In this document: piece by piece, positions 1 to 3,879 of the stretch
Position numbering within the stretch: position 1 is the first letter of the stretch
Layout of the letters: the number at the start of each line of letters is the position of its first letter
Source of the DNA: a virus
Lineage: Duplodnaviria > Heunggongvirae > Uroviricota > Caudoviricetes
Length of the DNA: 3,879 bases
Reading direction: 5' to 3' (one strand)
Virus record (IMG/VR): IMGVR_UViG_2740892235_000014
The notes under the pieces: model-generated
Told to the model about the DNA's origin: nothing
Seen by the model: only the letters and a program-made list of their open reading frames with translations
The model's database searches: none
Translations under genes and position numbers: made by a program

Positions 1-1218
1 ATGAACAAACTGAGCGATACCTTGCTAAGGAAACTTCATGGTAAGCCAGCGGAGAAAAACACGTTTTATAGCGATGGCGGAAATCTGAGCGTGAAATATT
101 TAACATCAGGGAAATTAACCTGGTATTTCACTTACAGGGCAGGAACGGGAAGAGAGACACGACCGGAACGTATTAAGCTGGGAAATTATCCTGATCTGAG
201 CCTGAAAGCAGCCAGGGAAAAAGCCGCCCAGTGTCGCGCATGGCTGGCGGAGGGGAAAAATCCACGCCATGAGATGAATTACGCCGTACAGGAAGCGTTA
301 AAGCCGGTAACGGTTGGCGATGCGCTCACCTACTGGCTTGAGTCGTACGTAAAGGAAAACCGCGTGGATTATATCGCCCTGAAAAGGCGACTTAATAATC
401 ACGTAATACAGTACATTGGCGCTATGCCGCTGGATAAATGCGAGCTACGGCACTGGCTGGCCTGTTTTGACCAGGTGGCAAAGCGAACACCTGTTACTGC
501 CGGATTCGTGCTACAGACATGCAAGCAGGCGCTTAAGTTCTGCCGGAGGCGGCGCTTTGCAATCAGCAACGTTCTCGATGATCTGAACGTGGCGGACGTT
601 GGGAAAAAACCGGATATAAGCGAACGTGTCTTAAGCACCAAAGAACTGGGCGAGTTATTGCAGGCGCTGGATAAAAAAATATTTTCTCCTTACTACGTCG
701 CGTTAATCCGCCTCCTGATTGTCTTCGGAGCCAGGACGGTAGAACTGAGGTTATCGGAGATCAGCGAGTGGGATTTTACCGAAATGCTATGGACCGTTCC
801 GAAGGAGCACAGCAAAACGAAGGTTGCAATATTCCGGCCCATACCGGAAGCGATCCTGCCGTTCGTCACGCGGCTGGTGGACCAGAACAGGCACACGGGC
901 TTATTACTGGGGGAAGTGAAACAGGAGGCTAGCGTATCGCAGTACGGCAGATTAGCGCACAGGAGGCTAAAACACCCTCAATGGTCATTGCATGACATCC
1001 GGCGCACCTTTACAACCATGCTGAACGATTTAGGCGTTGATCCTCACGTCGTGGAGCAGCTTACAGGCCACCAGATGCCAGGAATGCAACGCGTGTACAA
1101 CCATTCCCGCTATATTGATGCGAAACGCAATGCGCTTGATATGTGGGTGGAGCGGTTGGAGATACTGGCGGGAACACATGAAAACGTAACCACGCTACCA
1201 GTAACCAGAATAAAATAA
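1..1218 (+). CDS. int: Site-specific tyrosine recombinase / integrase, P4-like family (405 aa)
   Basis: 405-codon ORF starting at the window edge. N-terminus (KNTFYSDGGNLSVKY...WYFTYR) resembles the arm-binding domain of P4-type integrases. C-terminus has the catalytic pattern: GARTVELRLSE (Arg), HDIRRTF (His-x-x-Arg), LTGHQ, and RVYNHSRY (candidate Tyr nucleophile). The true start could lie a few codons upstream of the window. Confidence 0.9.
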   Translation: MNKLSDTLLRKLHGKPAEKNTFYSDGGNLSVKYLTSGKLTWYFTYRAGTGRETRPERIKLGNYPDLSLKAAREKAAQCRAWLAEGKNPRHEMNYAVQEALKPVTVGDALTYWLESYVKENRVDYIALKRRLNNHVIQYIGAMPLDKCELRHWLACFDQVAKRTPVTAGFVLQTCKQALKFCRRRRFAISNVLDDLNVADVGKKPDISERVLSTKELGELLQALDKKIFSPYYVALIRLLIVFGARTVELRLSEISEWDFTEMLWTVPKEHSKTKVAIFRPIPEAILPFVTRLVDQNRHTGLLLGEVKQEASVSQYGRLAHRRLKHPQWSLHDIRRTFTTMLNDLGVDPHVVEQLTGHQMPGMQRVYNHSRYIDAKRNALDMWVERLEILAGTHENVTTLPVTRIK

Positions 1219-1235
1219 TTTTTTTCGTGTTTTTT

Positions 1236-1251
1236 CAGTATGCGCATACTG
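1236..1251. promoter_or_regulatory. Perfect 16-bp palindrome CAGTATGCGCATACTG immediately downstream of the int stop codon
   Basis: Read directly: the reverse complement equals itself. Preceded by two T6 runs. Function (protein-binding site or hairpin) is unknown. Confidence 0.4.
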
Positions 1252-1261
1252 GATAAGTGCA

Positions 1262-1310
1262 CAGATACAACGTGAAACAATGTGCAACAACGTGACACAA
1301 TCACGAACAA
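1262..1310. repeat. Array of about five 10-bp phased repeats (units ending in ACAA; consensus near YGTGMMACAA)
   Basis: ACAA recurs at 1267, 1277, 1287, 1297 and 1307, exactly 10 bp apart, with CGTG/TGTG cores in between. Helical-phase spacing suggests a protein-binding array (Int arm-type or AlpA/Vis sites). Confidence 0.5.
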
Positions 1311-1407
1311 GAGGCCAAAAAGAATACAGATTTGTAAGTTGCTGATTTTTAATGCTCAGCTGGTTTTTTATACATTAGTGAATTACGCGTTAAAGTGTGC
1401 GAAAAAA

Positions 1408-1438
1408 GGCATAAAACAAGATTTTATGCCTTTGTATT
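1408..1438. terminator. Putative bidirectional intrinsic terminator between int and alpA
   Basis: 9-bp stem GGCATAAAA / TTTTATGCC (1408-1416 / 1422-1430) with a 5-nt loop, flanked by an A6 run upstream and TTTGTATT downstream. The stem is AT-rich, so strength is uncertain. Confidence 0.45.
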
Positions 1439-1502
1439 AACATGAATTTAAATGATTTTATCCTGATTATTCCTCTTTCTGTAAACCATGCGACACCAAC
1501 AT

Positions 1503-1531
1503 TTGCCAACTCTGAATCATCCTGACACAAT
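1503..1531 (+). promoter_or_regulatory. Candidate sigma70 promoter for alpA (TTGCCA -17- CACAAT)
   Basis: -35 TTGCCA at 1503-1508, 17-nt spacer, -10 CACAAT at 1526-1531, about 60 nt upstream of the alpA start. The -10 is weak and alternatives exist. Confidence 0.3.
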
Positions 1532-1563
1532 CAGACACATCCCAACGCAATAGAACACGAAAT
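1524..1563. repeat. Second 10-bp phased repeat array (GACAC / GACAC / AACGC / AACAC) overlapping the candidate alpA promoter
   Basis: The pentamers start at 1524, 1534, 1544 and 1554. TGACACAATCA also occurs in the first array (1293-1303) and here (1523-1533). Confidence 0.4.
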
Positions 1564-1592
1564 AACTCTTTAAGAAACGAAAGGGGGCAATA

Positions 1593-1781
1593 GTGTTAAG
1601 CACTGATCGGTTTATACGTGAAAAAGAATGCGAAAAGCTAACAGGCCTTAGCCGCTCATGCCGCTACCGCCTGGAAAAGGCCGGACAATTCCCATCACGT
1701 CGTAAACTTGGTGGGCGTTCTGTTGGCTGGTCTTTATCTGAGGTTTTGGCCTGGAAGGATAGCTGCAAGGCAGTTCACTAA
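1593..1781 (+). CDS. alpA: AlpA / Vis-family phage transcriptional regulator / excisionase-like DNA-binding protein (62 aa, GTG start)
   Basis: SD AAGGGGG at 1581-1587, 5 nt before GTG at 1593. The protein (EKLTGLSRSCRYRLEKAGQFPSRRKLGGRSVGWSLSEVLAW) matches the AlpA family pattern as I remember it: KTG-x-R-x-T-x-Y, FP, then LG-x-(R/K)-SVGW and a conserved W. Position right after int is typical. Confidence 0.85.
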   Translation: MLSTDRFIREKECEKLTGLSRSCRYRLEKAGQFPSRRKLGGRSVGWSLSEVLAWKDSCKAVH

Positions 1782-1922
1782 AAAGACTGGCGGCACACAG
1801 TCGCCACACATCCACTAATACAGAGATATAACTATGAAGATTGAATATGCGCCCGAACGTGGGCGGGGATTCGTTCGCCCTGGTGAAACTGAAAAACAAC
1901 AAAATTGGGGTTTTTCAGGCAT

Positions 1923-1950
1923 AAAAAAAGCGGCCCCGATATGGAGCCGC
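1923..1950 (-). terminator. Putative intrinsic terminator for the minus-strand small-gene transcript ending at 2025
   Basis: Hairpin GCGGCCCC-GATAT-GGAGCCGC (1930-1950, 8-bp stem with one mismatch). On the minus strand it is followed by a T7 run (complement of A7 at 1923-1929). It lies about 75 nt downstream of the 2025 stop. Confidence 0.5.
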
Positions 1951-2024
1951 CTTTCTGAACAATTAACCTGCTGCGCCTTATGTGTATGTGATCCCAAACA
2001 TAAGCACGGGAATGATAGCCGCTA

Positions 2025-2228
2025 TCAGGCTGGTGGGCAATTACCTTGCTTGTTGGGGCCGTATTGTGCTGCCATTTTCATCCGTTCAGAACGTGAATAT
2101 TTTTTTAGAAACTCATCAAGGACAAAAGCGCATGGAGCGAATCTTTCTGATTCATGCTCGAGCGCCATATTTTCGTGCTCTCTGTTCGTTTTTTGCGATG
2201 GTGTATTGGTTGATTCTTTATTGGTCAT
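2025..2228 (-). CDS. Hypothetical small protein (67 aa), paralog of the 2685-2912 ORF
   Basis: Minus-strand ORF starting MTNK. It shares the N-terminal MTN and a C-terminal motif FVLDEFLKKY (FALEDFVDKY in the paralog). It is preceded by the conserved 44-bp family A leader. No recognisable domain. Confidence 0.5.
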   Translation of the reverse strand: MTNKESTNTPSQKTNREHENMALEHESERFAPCAFVLDEFLKKYSRSERMKMAAQYGPNKQGNCPPA

Positions 2229-2236
2229 TGTGTGTA

Positions 2237-2280
2237 CCTGTAAAGCAATGCGCCGGAGTTCCTCACGCCACGGCGCTGAT
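2237..2280. repeat. Family A conserved leader element, copy 1 (44 bp, internal hairpin GCGCCG-N15-CGGCGC)
   Basis: 41/44 identical to 2921-2964. It lies 9 nt upstream of the minus-strand start codon at 2228. On the plus strand the hairpin is followed by TGATGTTTTTTATTCTTT. Confidence 0.65.
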
Positions 2281-2285
2281 GTTTT

Positions 2286-2390
2286 TTATTCTTTGGGTTC
2301 AATACCGCGTTGCTGTAATTCTTTTCGGATTATTCGTTTTATCCAAGCAGCTAAAGAGTCATCACCGTCTTGTTGTTGTGCTTTTTCCAT
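2286..2390 (-). CDS. Possible small ORF (34 aa, MEKAQQQDGDDSLAAWIKRIIRKELQQRGIEPKE)
   Basis: Found by manual translation of the minus strand; it is below the ORF-track size cutoff. Charged, helical-looking composition, weak SD (GGGAAAAG), and its stop abuts the family A copy 1 region. Could be spurious. Confidence 0.25.
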   Translation of the reverse strand: MEKAQQQDGDDSLAAWIKRIIRKELQQRGIEPKE

Positions 2391-2458
2391 CTTTTCCCGT
2401 AAGTCAGGATCTAAACGGAACTGGAAAGGAGGATTACCACGCCTTTCATTTTTGTGTG

Positions 2459-2486
2459 TTGACACGTCAATTACACTCCATATAAT
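2459..2486 (+). promoter_or_regulatory. Consensus sigma70 promoter P1 (TTGACA -16- TATAAT), plus strand, antisense to the minus-strand cluster
   Basis: -35 TTGACA at 2459-2464, 16-nt spacer, -10 TATAAT at 2481-2486; both hexamers match consensus exactly. Confidence 0.55.
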
Positions 2487-2492
2487 GTGTTT

Positions 2493-2508
2493 ATGTGTAT
2501 ATACACAT
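2493..2508. promoter_or_regulatory. Perfect 16-bp palindrome ATGTGTATATACACAT at the predicted transcription start of P1 (operator-like)
   Basis: Read directly; the reverse complement is identical. It sits 7 nt downstream of the -10 hexamer. Confidence 0.5.
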
Positions 2509-2530
2509 TACACACAACTAGCACAAAAAA

Positions 2531-2645
2531 CAACGCCCCGCAGTGATGGGAACACATACGGGGCGTCTAACCAAACCATTAATTGAGGAACGATTATGGC
2601 TATAAAAGAGCATAGCTTACTCTTTATACACACACAAACGCCCCG
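2531..2645 (+). repeat. Family B module, copy 1: leader hairpin + TCTAACCAA + SD + ATG + about 16 codons (MAIKEHSLLFIHTQTP), homologous to 3279-3390
   Basis: Hairpin ACGCCCCG / CGGGGCGT (2533-2540 / 2559-2566), SD GAGGAA at 2585-2590, ATG at 2596, then TACACACACAAACG. It aligns block-for-block with copy 2. The downstream 240-codon reading frame looks like antisense junk (S/C/R-rich) running across the minus-strand genes. Confidence 0.6.
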
Positions 2646-2684
2646 GAAACGGAATAATCCGTTTCATAGTTCGGTTTTGTGCAC

Positions 2685-2912
2685 TCATCCTGGCGGTCGG
2701 TTTTTGCCGGATTTAAGCCGCCGTGGGTATTTATCGACAAAATCTTCAAGGGCAAATTTTTCTGGTGGCACTAAGCGCGGCGCTGGTGGTGGTATTTTTG
2801 TTCTGGTTAGTTCTTCCTCAAGTCTGGCGCAGGCTTCTGACTGCCTTTGCCGGATGATTTCATCATCTTGCGTTTGCGTGTCTTGTATTGGTGATAGTGT
2901 GTTGTTGGTCAT
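2685..2912 (-). CDS. Hypothetical small protein (75 aa), paralog of the 2025-2228 ORF; probably co-transcribed with the upstream RHH gene
   Basis: Minus-strand ORF starting MTNN, with an acidic, proline-rich middle and the C-terminal motif FALEDFVDKY. Preceded by family A copy 2. No recognisable domain. Confidence 0.55.
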   Translation of the reverse strand: MTNNTLSPIQDTQTQDDEIIRQRQSEACARLEEELTRTKIPPPAPRLVPPEKFALEDFVDKYPRRLKSGKNRPPG

Positions 2913-2920
2913 GATACTGC

Positions 2921-2964
2921 CCTGTAAAGCAATGCGCCGTAGTACCTCACACCACGGCGCTGAT
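2921..2964. repeat. Family A conserved leader element, copy 2 (44 bp, hairpin GCGCCG-N15-CGGCGC)
   Basis: 41/44 identical to 2237-2280. It lies between the RHH stop (2970) and the start codon at 2912. Confidence 0.65.
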
Positions 2965-2969
2965 AGTGA

Positions 2970-3149
2970 TTATTCTGATTCTTTGGCCTTGCGGCGCTGG
3001 CGGCGTTTGATCTCGCCTTCAAGTGCCGAAACGATAAATTGCCCTGTACTTTCGCCATCTTCCTTTAAATTTTCTACAGCATCAGCTATTGCGTGTGGTA
3101 CTCGAGCCTCAAGCTTTTTGGATTTTGCATTAACTGCTTTTGTTGCCAT
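2970..3149 (-). CDS. Arc-type ribbon-helix-helix DNA-binding protein (59 aa), putative transcriptional repressor
   Basis: Internal start ATG at 3149 with SD GAGGAA 8 nt upstream. The protein MATKAVNAKSKKLEARVPHAIADAVENLKEDGESTGQFIVSALEGEIKRRQRRKAKESE aligns with phage P22 Arc as I remember it: RWP-REVLDLVRKVAEENG-RSVNSEIYQRV versus RVP-HAIADAVENLKEDG-ESTGQFIVSAL. The 106-aa extension in the ORF track has no SD and a hydrophobic junk-like N-terminus. Confidence 0.7.
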   Translation of the reverse strand: MATKAVNAKSKKLEARVPHAIADAVENLKEDGESTGQFIVSALEGEIKRRQRRKAKESE

Positions 3150-3170
3150 ATCTGATTTCCTCGTTATTAG

Positions 3171-3251
3171 GTGGCTGACAGTATACACACAAGAAAACGG
3201 AAAAACACTATTGACGTGGCTGACACCCGTTACTAATATAGTGGCTGACAC
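3171..3251. promoter_or_regulatory. Three direct repeats of GTGGCTGACA (3171-3180, 3216-3225, 3241-3250): candidate operator array
   Basis: Exact 10-mer three times in the divergent intergenic region. Copy 2 lies in the spacer of promoter P2 and copy 3 at its predicted transcription start. RHH proteins typically bind direct or inverted repeat arrays. Confidence 0.5.
3211..3239 (+). promoter_or_regulatory. Sigma70 promoter P2 (TTGACG -17- TAATAT) for the plus-strand operon
   Basis: -35 TTGACG at 3211-3216, 17-nt spacer, -10 TAATAT at 3234-3239. It has the same position relative to the family B hairpin and ATG as P1 has in copy 1. Confidence 0.55.
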
Positions 3252-3278
3252 CTTTATCAAGGTAATCGATGAAAAGAC

Positions 3279-3390
3279 AAAGCCCCGCAAGTGTCGTTAC
3301 CACTCGCAGGGCTTCTAACCAACAACGTAAACTAGGAGCCGTTATGGTTGCTGTAAATCATATACCACACCTTGTACACACACAAACGGC
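3279..3390 (+). repeat. Family B module, copy 2: leader hairpin + TCTAACCAA + SD + ATG + first codons of the Icd-like ORF
   Basis: Imperfect 14-bp stem AAGCCCCGCAAGTG / CACTCGCAGGGCTT (3280-3293 / 3301-3314, 12/14 paired) with a 7-nt loop, SD AGGAG at 3334-3338, ATG at 3344, then TACACACACAAACG. Confidence 0.6.
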
Positions 3391-3541
3391 CTTTGTGTGG
3401 CGTTTTCTGGCACTGAGTGCCGGAGAATCTCAAATCATCCACGTAACCGCCTGGACGGAACGCGAAGCGCGTAACCGTTGCCCGTCCGGTTGTGTTGCTG
3501 TATTTGCCGCCCGTATTCGTCAGGAGGTGCGCCATGATTAA
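3344..3541 (+). CDS. Small protein (65 aa), tentatively Icd-like (host cell division inhibitor-like / P4 Ash-region type)
   Basis: SD AGGAG 5 nt before ATG at 3344. The protein MVAVNHIPHLVHTQTAFVWRFLALSAGESQIIHVTAWTEREARNRCPSGCVAVFAARIRQEVRHD fits my recollection of Icd-like proteins (VW-F-A, TE-EAR, V-FA-R); this is unverified. The alternative upstream start at 3269 (90 aa) has a weaker SD. Confidence 0.5.
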   Translation: MVAVNHIPHLVHTQTAFVWRFLALSAGESQIIHVTAWTEREARNRCPSGCVAVFAARIRQEVRHD

Positions 3542-3746
3542 TCTGTCACTTACTGACCTTAACCGCATTCAGTTTCGTGAGAAATTCACAGGGCAGCTAC
3601 TGGTCAATGTGGATAAAGGTCGCGTGGTGTGTAATTACCACTTACCAGATGAAGCAATTGTCGCCACAAGGGAATCATTACAGGAAATCACAAAACGTGC
3701 CGGAATGATTAACACGAATATTCAGGGGATGCTTTATGCACAATAA
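3534..3746 (+). CDS. Hypothetical protein (70 aa), translationally coupled to the upstream ORF
   Basis: Strong SD AGGAGG at 3523-3528, 5 nt before ATG at 3534. The start overlaps the upstream stop as ATGATTAA. The protein MINLSLTDLNRIQFREKFTGQLLVNVDKGRVV... has a balanced composition; no family recognised. The GTG at 3492 used by the ORF track lacks an SD. Confidence 0.6.
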   Translation: MINLSLTDLNRIQFREKFTGQLLVNVDKGRVVCNYHLPDEAIVATRESLQEITKRAGMINTNIQGMLYAQ

Positions 3747-3820
3747 AACCACACCGGACGCAGCCGCCGAAGCCATCAAAACGCTGATGCACGCGCTGAT
3801 TGATATTTCTGTTATCGCGG
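3736..3820 (+). CDS. 5' end of a further ORF (MHNKTTPDAAAEAIKTLMHALIDISVIA...), interrupted by the assembly gap
   Basis: ATG at 3736 overlaps the upstream stop at 3744-3746, with SD-like AGGGGA at 3724-3729. The frame is open until the N run, so the true length is unknown. Confidence 0.35.
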
Positions 3821-3830
3821 NNNNNNNNNN
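3821..3830. other. Assembly gap (10 N)
   Basis: Ten consecutive n characters. Contiguity and reading frame of 3831-3879 relative to the upstream sequence cannot be assumed. Confidence 1.
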
Positions 3831-3879
3831 CGATTATACTCGGTCAGACTTTTCGCCAGTTGAATGCGCCAGTGGATGA

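Follow-up and report, generated by a model that had tools for sequence, protein, structure and literature searches.

Two small genes in tandem cassettes of an Escherichia coli satellite

We analysed a 3,879-nt stretch of DNA catalogued as viral (IMG/VR record IMGVR_UViG_2740892235_000014; hereafter the window), with a focus on two small minus-strand open reading frames (ORFs), orf67 and orf75. Positions 1-3820 of the window match the chromosome of Escherichia coli O145:H28 strain 12E115 at a reported identity of 100.0%, with one 1-nt indel, and the annotation of that strain places the window at the left end of a ~15-kb element whose insertion site is tqsA. Its genes include int and alpA, four small genes that point leftward, and an icd-like gene. 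Further genes encode a RepA helicase, SSB and PerC, and the element carries its own capsid, protease, portal, connector, HNH, TerS and TerL genes, with tail and lysis genes being absent. By gene content, as annotated for the identical 12E115 element, it is a capsid-forming phage-inducible chromosomal island (PICI) of the type of EcCIEDL933, which typifies these satellites and needs AlpA for induction (bioRxiv 10.1101/2022.09.08.507074). The regulatory region of a mobile element, in which an earlier note on this DNA had placed the pair of ORFs, is thus that of a satellite.

Each of the small ORFs comes second in a cassette that is read leftward: A ribbon-helix-helix (RHH) gene is followed by a 57-nt spacer that contains a hairpin, and then by the small ORF. 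Two such cassettes lie in tandem within the window, at 2025-3340, between alpA and an icd-like replication operon. Cassette A consists of RHH-A as proximal cistron (2286-2465, minus strand), spacer A (2229-2285) and, as distal cistron, orf67 (2025-2228, minus strand; 67 amino acids, motif FAPCAFVLDEFLKKY, RefSeq WP_000182306). Cassette B has the same arrangement, with RHH-B (2970-3149, minus strand), spacer B (2913-2969) and orf75 (2685-2912, minus strand; 75 amino acids, motif PPEKFALEDFVDKYPRRLKSGKNRPPG, RefSeq WP_012601535).

We counted a small protein as a member of a Pfam, NCBIfam, PADLOC or PDB family if its score lay above the curated cut-off or its E value was at or below 0.001; for the RHH proteins, membership of the YlcI/YnfO family required a score above 30 bits. 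RHH-A, which starts with GTG, is an Arc-like RHH protein (phrog_228, Arc-like repressor, E 2e-6); its score against YlcI_YnfO_N (NF041551) is 19.7 bits, under the cut-off of 30, and it is not a member of that family by this test. RHH-B belongs to the YlcI/YnfO family (NF041551, 60.6 bits against the same cut-off, E 1e-16; phrog_949, E 3e-23). The earlier note is right in placing the small ORFs downstream of a repressor-type RHH gene; that a single RHH gene stands upstream of the pair is not correct, with RHH-A preceding orf67 and RHH-B preceding orf75.

A small-protein family of Escherichia and Shigella satellites

Both minus-strand ORFs are present as originally proposed and are annotated in RefSeq as hypothetical proteins, and they do have in common an N-terminal MTN and the related C-terminal motifs FVLDEFLKKY (orf67) and FALEDFVDKY (orf75). 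The common MTN falls within a 75-nt DNA repeat at the junction between RHH gene and small ORF. In a pairwise BLASTP comparison the two proteins are weakly similar (25% identity, E 0.012). Profile-profile comparison of their sub-families, A for orf67 and B for orf75, gives an E value of 1.4e-5 across 20 motif columns, and bridging members combine the N-terminus of one type with the motif of the other (for instance P0041, with N-terminus MSEDELQKLAFS and PCTFALEKFLKEY). Together with the identical gene context, these observations back the weak BLASTP match and uphold the proposed homology of the pair.

A word-indexed search returned 15 homologues for orf67 and 17 for orf75, all from E. coli, and an exhaustive hidden Markov model search of 1.84 billion cluster representatives found a family of 22 clusters only. 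Among 185,579 species representatives, matches were confined to E. coli and Shigella, and relatives of the family were absent from the 50,697 phage genomes searched. The proteins are 55-80 amino acids long and have a variable charged N-terminal half, the signature P-x(1,2)-[FY]-A-[LI]-[ED]-x-F-[LV]-x-K-[YH]-x-R and a basic tail. The C-terminal motif is kept in members with <25% identity whose N-terminal halves are unrelated. Conservation in related elements, on which the earlier note had made its proposal depend, is seen in these homologues. These comparisons show orf67 and orf75 to be genuine homologous members of a small family restricted to Escherichia/Shigella PICI satellites. One related locus, L117, encodes a third, more divergent member with the motif FRIEQFIKTYKR.

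AlphaFold2 models orf75 as a long helix (residues 8-38), a proline-rich linker, a short helix (residues 54-61) that holds most of the motif, and a disordered tail, with a mean predicted local distance difference test score (pLDDT) of 78.6 and a predicted template modelling score (pTM) of 0.35. The model of orf67, with helices at residues 15-29, 31-43 and 46-56 and pLDDT averages of 80-91 over residues 31-50, resembles that of orf75 at lower confidence. The small proteins are thus predicted to be helical and non-globular, with a conserved amphipathic helix, F-A-L-E-x-F-[LV]-x-K-[YH], and a basic tail; the helices over the motif are predicted with confidence. An N-terminus of the N/Nun type, rich in arginine and RNA-binding, was considered as well and was rejected: It is seen in some members and is not conserved across the family.

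The profile searches and structure predictions that the earlier note had recommended yielded neither a family of known function nor a globular fold, in keeping with its statement that no family was recognised. In Pfam, NCBIfam and PADLOC the best matches of the small proteins do not rise above noise (DUF2371, E 0.17; Cas8g, 17.6 bits with a cut-off of 125), the PDB returned 0 matches at E <= 10 to a profile search, and 26 family members gave no consistent match to Pfam. Foldseek found 0 matches in the PDB and none with E < 2 in BFVD. Only orf67 reaches a PHROG, phrog_21027 (E 2.2e-12, residues 1-48), and orf75 has zero matches there; membership, in a family of unknown function, concerns orf67 alone and says nothing of what the proteins do. 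The small proteins match no toxin family in the Pfam, NCBIfam, PADLOC and PDB profile searches, and Pfam scans detected no Ant, AntA, Bro or KilA domain in either ORF or in the 26 relatives. The related locus L117 holds a separate AntA gene. Our literature search turned up no publication that deals with these ORFs or with RHH cassettes of E. coli PICIs.

A constant block behind variable RHH genes

We collected 109 related loci from IMG/VR (designated by L numbers), which yielded 74 distinct combinations of a small ORF and its upstream gene. The upstream RHHs comprise 37 protein variants of ~10 classes, including 57-residue Arc-like, 59-residue and 65-residue YlcI-like and 101-residue forms. 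Identical small ORFs are found behind many of these, in at least 10 classes: An identical orf75 stands behind at least eight different RHH proteins, and orf67 occurs behind both Arc-like and YlcI-like RHHs, with 100% identical copies accompanying other RHHs in L008-L013. The type of the small ORF tracks neither the AlpA type nor the Icd type, identical sequences being found with different AlpA types and with both Icd types. The examination of homologue neighbourhoods that had been suggested for these genes therefore reveals a fixed place behind variable RHHs across related loci.

Compared across loci in this way, the hairpin and the small ORF are shown to be a constant block, which shuffles freely against a hypervariable, immunity-like block of RHH gene and putative operator. 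Because small-ORF alleles shuffle among RHH classes, this pattern argues against a cognate toxin-antitoxin role and against an anti-repressor specific to one RHH, and so makes the anti-repressor and toxin functions put forward in the earlier note less likely.

The two-cassette stretch is present at >= 80% coverage in 27 of 5426 complete genomes. The satellites L004, L005 and L006 have a single cassette, and L003 (2987-3616) has an RHH-A copy without a small ORF beside a full cassette with an identical orf75. Tandem cassettes in differing states suggest frequent recombination at the constant block. Since other satellites have the same alleles in combination with different partners, the pair in the window appears to be two alleles joined by mosaic recombination. 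The description of the pair as duplicated is therefore apt for two homologous copies and not for a recent duplication in place; these are rather two divergent cassettes. In L117 (2990-3810), a small ORF without an RHH gene occurs in addition to a full cassette.

A conserved hairpin between the two cistrons

Across the junction of RHH gene and small ORF, 75 nt of the two cassettes (2218-2292 and 2902-2976) are 80% identical, and the flanking genes are barely alignable. The 57-nt spacer is the most conserved sequence of the region. Where an upstream RHH was identified (74 distinct combinations), the distance from the RHH stop codon to the MT(N/D) start is nearly always exactly 57 nt; it becomes 42 nt if an in-frame upstream ATG is counted. 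Spacer A, found as direct repeat D1, contains a hairpin stem at 2250-2276, followed by the Shine-Dalgarno-like AUUGCUUUACAGG and the ATG, and scores 84.5 bits with R1, our own covariance model. Spacer B scores 90.6 bits with the same model and has an 11-bp hairpin at 2934-2960 (fold -24.3 kcal/mol, z -3.3). Both are read on the minus strand.

The basal six pairs of the hairpin are kept in nearly all of 37 distinct spacers, the unpaired cells being those of the outermost pair in two sequences. One-sided changes in the stem all produce G-U or U-G pairs in the sense of the small ORF, where the other strand would have A-C mismatches, and the most divergent spacer has two compensatory U-A pairs; both features argue that the hairpin acts in the leftward mRNA. 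The hairpin is followed by a near-invariant AUUGCU(U/A)U(A/G)CAGG, and all spacer variants have a purine-rich Shine-Dalgarno-like element 7-10 nt before the ATG. The spacer element is widespread, occurring in 1652 of 5426 complete E. coli genomes (~30%) with up to seven copies per genome. A further candidate, a sar-like antisense RNA with its end at the spacer hairpin, was rejected: No plus-strand promoter was found, and a U-run follows the hairpin in some variants only.

An Eta-like open frame antisense to both cassettes

On the plus strand, a long frame that is open antisense to both cassettes (1834-3318, made up of ORFs 1834-2586 and 2596-3318) emerged from stop counts, simulations and a survey of 100 loci. 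It shares the frame of the icd-like gene (3343-3540) and so spans 1834-3540 in the window. It resembles eta of P4, which PMC10111431 describes as a long frame translationally coupled to the alpA homologue, with kil/icd nested inside; according to the same paper, which cites Forti et al. 1999, translation of eta prevents premature termination of the late read-through transcript. Between 1782 and 3343 on the plus strand, the Eta-like frame contains 4 stops, compared with 43 and 18 in the other two frames, and three of the four sit right before an ATG of icd or of an icd remnant. Its first ATG, at 1834, lies upstream of a terminator at 1925-1958, through which the frame reads.

The frame is continuous in other loci (over 314, 355, 353 and 605 codons); in relatives of the element it is located at 3197-4264 in L005, 3119-4063 in L006, 2331-4148 (minus strand) in L117 and 2361-3422 (minus strand) in L120. 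The survey of 100 distinct loci gives a median of 380 codons for the stretch that is open over the small ORF; 63 of the loci keep it in frame as far as the C-terminus of Icd. We simulated stop codons by shuffling non-coding parts and by reshuffling or resampling the synonymous codons of the minus-strand genes: ~8 stops were expected and 0 seen, with P < 2e-4 in each of two loci. Within the RHH genes, the Eta-like frame has 0 stops in 56 distinct genes versus 50 expected, and within the small ORFs 1 in 59 versus 34 expected; because the sequences are related, the P values are not exact. The openness spans ~10 unrelated RHH classes. The long plus-strand ORFs were also considered as a compositional shadow, the plus strand being A-poor there, yet the synonymous-codon and shuffle simulations reject chance.

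The Eta-like translation is rich in Cys and Ser and is not conserved between the cassettes, and the Prokaryotic Genome Annotation Pipeline (PGAP) annotates these stretches as "Icd-like pseudogene". Selection appears, from these comparisons, to act on the openness of the frame and not on its protein sequence, in agreement with the description of P4 eta. The reverse possibility, that the small ORFs are mere shadows of the Eta-like frame, was rejected: Their own frame has 0 stops in 59 distinct sequences versus ~61 expected if the opposite frame alone coded.

Putative promoters, operators and neighbouring features

A putative rightward promoter, promoter A, lies at 2459-2486 (plus strand) and consists of TTGACA, a spacer of 16 nt and TATAAT, which agrees with the sigma-70 consensus at 12 of 12 positions. 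It is accompanied by a 16-bp palindrome, ATGTGTATATACACAT (2493-2508), which is likely the RHH-A operator, so that the whole feature extends over 2459-2508. Compared with 12E115, the window contains one additional T, at 2477, through which the promoter spacer grows from 15 to 16 nt and the ATG that PGAP used as the start of RHH-A is lost. Promoter A overlaps the GTG start of RHH-A; its direction is rightward, into a truncated icd remnant and from there through cassette B in antisense. This remnant, together with the leader hairpin A' (2533-2566), occupies 2533-2640 on the plus strand, as judged from repeats D3 and D11 and from folding. Its ATG at 2596 encodes MAIKEHSLLFIHTQT, compared with MVAVNHIPHLVHTQT in the real icd, and it is truncated after ~15 codons.

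The corresponding region beside RHH-B (3171-3250, plus strand) has three direct repeats of GTGGCTGACA, at 3171, 3216 and 3241, which are likely RHH-B operators and overlap a putative rightward promoter at 3211-3239. The promoter function of 2459-2486 and 3211-3239 and the operator function of the repeats are inferred. A second leader hairpin, B' (3279-3315), and the intact icd-like gene (3343-3540; phage_ICD_like NF033153, E 5e-18) follow at 3279-3540 on the plus strand, and the icd-like gene is the first of the rightward replication and packaging operon. The leader hairpins of both cassettes are GC-rich.

The satellite activator gene alpA (1593-1781, plus strand; AlpA family, PF05930, E 5e-18) converges with orf67, and between the two lies the strong bidirectional intrinsic terminator at 1925-1958 (fold -26.4 kcal/mol, z -3.7), which on the minus strand has a stem of 14 bp with seven U after it. 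The AT-rich intergenic region between int and alpA contains three repeats of ~21 nt (1263-1303 and 1513-1533, plus strand) with the core ACAACGTGA(A/C)ACAAT-like / CATCCTGACACAAT; these could be sites for AlpA or for the arm-binding domain of the integrase Int. The Brucella small RNA model BSnc120 of Rfam gives a weak match at 1369-1447 (plus strand; 27.9 bits against a gathering threshold of 114), where hairpins are present; this is not a member of the family. At the right end of the window, a run of ten N residues (3821-3830) breaks the last ORF (3736-3879), and the best genome matches end at 3820.

Comparison with known regulatory systems

The immI region of phage P22 (arc - sar - ant, with mnt) has a small RHH repressor gene and a second gene in the same operon. 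The cassettes are like it in this layout and in having an intercistronic element of RNA-level control and divergent promoters with RHH operators, the operators being putative here. Unlike in immI, the second gene encodes a protein of 57-75 residues that is devoid of an Ant-family domain, the spacer shows no antisense promoter and its hairpin substitutions point to the sense mRNA, and RHH and small ORF do not co-vary.

The immunity region of the satellite phage P4 (vis - eta/kil(icd) - CI RNA - seqA/seqC) has the same order of alpA/vis homologue, long open frame, icd/kil and replication genes, and the long frame of the window ends in an Icd domain as eta does with its nested kil (PMC10111431). 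By eye, the spacer also resembles the P4 immunity target seqC, a hairpin that has GCGUGAGAACUCCGG in its loop and is followed by UUCACAGG and then by the kil/icd ATG. In Smith-Waterman comparisons with the whole P4 genome, the best match of spacer A is seqC, with a score of 32 that exceeds those of all 200 shuffles; spacer B gave no significant match to the P4 genome. The two regions differ in that within eta of P4 no antisense RHH operon is annotated, and the spacer hairpin is on the strand opposite to the P4 targets.

Several observations bear on whether the likeness extends to RNA-based control. The Rfam models C4, isrK and c4-a1b1 gave zero matches at E <= 1 in the window or in the whole PICI; the models do match P4 itself (isrK at 60.8 bits, gathering threshold 50; c4-a1b1 at 44.1 bits, just under its threshold of 46.7). 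Model R1 recovers neither seqA nor seqC, and the spacer loops co-vary neither with the highly variable icd leader hairpins nor with the RHH type. Related PICIs with the same small ORFs do carry P4-type C4/CI and isrK/seqA-like RNAs upstream of icd, on the icd strand (L008 1073-1258; L020 1421-1932; L050 1771-1956; L072 1518-1722; L093 1771-1959; L117 2096-2664; L120 2126-2213). The variable segment of C4 is there complementary to the icd leader hairpin and not to the spacer, as in L008, where AAGGCTAA stands against TTAGCCTT. Pairing of the P4 type, with the spacer as the seqB/seqC partner of the icd leader, was accordingly rejected, there being no co-variation and no C4 in the element; RNAduplex energies were uninformative. 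The likeness to P4 probably reflects shared ancestry of sequence modules and is not evidence for control by a CI RNA.

Other systems share single aspects of the cassettes. RHH-B is a member of the YlcI/YnfO (DUF3950) proteins of the lambdoid cryptic prophages DLP12 and Qin, a likeness that concerns the upstream gene only: K-12 ylcI has no downstream FALExF ORF, and the convergent ybcW comes after it. Type II toxin-antitoxin operons (ParD/ParE, CopG-type) are bicistronic in the same way, a small RHH gene coming first, and autoregulation is probable in them as in the cassettes; unlike these operons, the cassettes display no toxin homology, no co-variation and no toxin-binding tail on the RHH, and the second protein is predicted to be non-globular. 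The Stl-Str regions of Staphylococcus aureus pathogenicity islands (SaPIs) and other Gram-positive PICIs likewise contain divergent regulatory units between int and the replication module (PMC6092414). The repressor-type gene of the cassettes encodes an RHH protein of 57-101 residues and not a large helix-turn-helix Stl, and a constant small second cistron is not reported for SaPIs in the literature we found.

Discussion

AlpA activation is the switch known from experiment in E. coli PICIs, and the founding paper termed it "unclear" whether a global repressor exists in Gram-negative PICIs (PMC6092414). The explanation that we favour for the cassettes, description and mechanism taken together, is put forward tentatively, as plausible though somewhat short of probable. 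Its descriptive part, comprising the family, the cassettes, the hairpin and the open frame, is very likely correct; the specific mechanism that follows is doubtful. The RHHs would repress the rightward promoters and themselves, and would thereby provide these satellites with their missing repressors. The small protein would be made together with the RHH repressor in the quiescent satellite, in an amount set by the hairpin, and would serve as an allele-independent accessory factor of the satellite maintenance switch. Being allele-independent, it would act on something constant: The conserved C-terminal amphipathic helix and basic tail may dock on an invariant partner, for which the constant hairpin RNA and the host transcription/translation machinery are candidates, and the effect would be to hold down the read-through (Eta-like) expression from alpA to icd that induces the island. 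Upon induction, the Eta-like frame would be transcribed in an AlpA-driven, translation-coupled manner, and this transcription would pass head-on through the cassette and turn it off.

A further-reaching proposal is that cassette and Eta-like frame form a dual-coding, bidirectionally translated switch, in which leftward expression of repressor and small protein and rightward, AlpA-driven, translation-coupled read-through from alpA over the Eta-like frame into icd and the replication genes use opposite strands of the same DNA and are mutually exclusive, and that the small proteins are the first of a new class of satellite immunity factors that act on the hairpin or the machinery to stop read-through. 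We consider this rather unlikely.

Several points weigh against the explanation we favour. Co-transcription of RHH and small ORF is presumed from their spacing and from the lack of a predicted internal promoter, and the hairpin could be a partial terminator or stability element unconnected with the protein. The RHH-A copy of L003, which stands without a small ORF, indicates that the protein is not needed by every RHH. The N-terminal halves and C-terminal tails of the small proteins are highly variable, and pN/pS, the ratio of nonsynonymous to synonymous polymorphism, is 0.51 in the ORF frame and 0.55 in the antisense frame; since the wobble positions of both frames coincide, codon-position and pN/pS tests cannot tell the strands apart. 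Lastly, the homology searches gave no pointer to the function of the small proteins.

The same observations can be read in other ways. The small protein might act not on the satellite's own switch but as a helper- or host-directed effector, made by the quiescent satellite for exclusion or interference in the manner of Rex or Nun. Exclusion genes such as lambda rexAB and HK022 nun are expressed in lysogeny, and a gene co-expressed with a putative repressor is in the classic position for one; its independence from RHH, AlpA and Icd alleles would suit an external conserved target, and a short helical protein with a docking-type motif would be in keeping with such a role. Satellite accessory and defence cargo is, however, usually variable and hotspot-like, whereas the small ORF is a constant part of a regulatory cassette, PADLOC gave no match, and EcCIEDL933, in which a homologue is present (strain EDL933 has one of the A type), reportedly does not block the phages that act as its helpers (bioRxiv 10.1101/2022.09.08.507074), so that we regard an effector as unlikely. 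It is improbable, too, that the ORFs matter in cis only, whether through mRNA stability, as antisense RNA or as a spacer that is translated on the strand opposite the Eta-like frame. Selection to keep the opposite frame open, the strongest conservation falling in a non-coding spacer, and variable protein ends with a pN/pS of ~0.5 would all be expected of such a sequence, but the peptide motif is kept between sub-families despite the divergence of their DNA, all 59 distinct sequences leave the small-ORF frame open against an expectation of about one stop in each, and the Cys/Ser-rich antisense translation is seemingly dictated by the minus-strand codons.

Two further readings start from the gene order. 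If the small protein switched the island on by inactivating either the RHH or a repressor of the helper, in the manner of Ant, which is encoded downstream of Arc in P22 immI, the succession of RHH gene and small ORF would resemble arc-ant, and the conserved hairpin could keep translation low until induction. Against such an anti-repressor or inducer, transcription of the gene would start at the promoter of the repressor itself and thus occur in the repressed state, and one and the same small ORF behind at least 10 unrelated RHH classes cannot recognise a specific repressor. Known Ant proteins are, moreover, much larger than the small-ORF products, which fall far short of their length and have no Ant, AntA, Bro or KilA domain; we hold this reading to be quite improbable. 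An addiction module, in which the RHH serves as both antitoxin and autorepressor and the island is stabilised by the small protein as toxin, would account for the antitoxin-first order, the sizes and the layout of RHH autoregulation, and RHH-A does match a VapB antitoxin model weakly (E 0.015; 15.9 bits against a cut-off of 60). The small protein falls in no toxin family, however, and its predicted structure is non-globular (pTM 0.35); RHH and small-ORF alleles reassort freely, RHHs of 57-59 residues have no C-terminal toxin-binding extension, and in L003 RHH-A persists without a small ORF. Such a module is very improbable.

PICIs are very common in E. coli, where they move virulence and defence genes among strains, and in Gram-negative PICIs the activator AlpA alone has been characterised. 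The present analysis shows a widespread, hypervariable cassette of RHH gene and putative operator that has immunity-like mosaicism and to which a constant hairpin and small protein are attached, and the placement of this whole cassette antisense within a stop-free Eta-like frame. The locus is a statistically supported case of both DNA strands being kept translatable, and its parts are candidates for how these satellites stay silent and for how AlpA-driven read-through overrides that silence.

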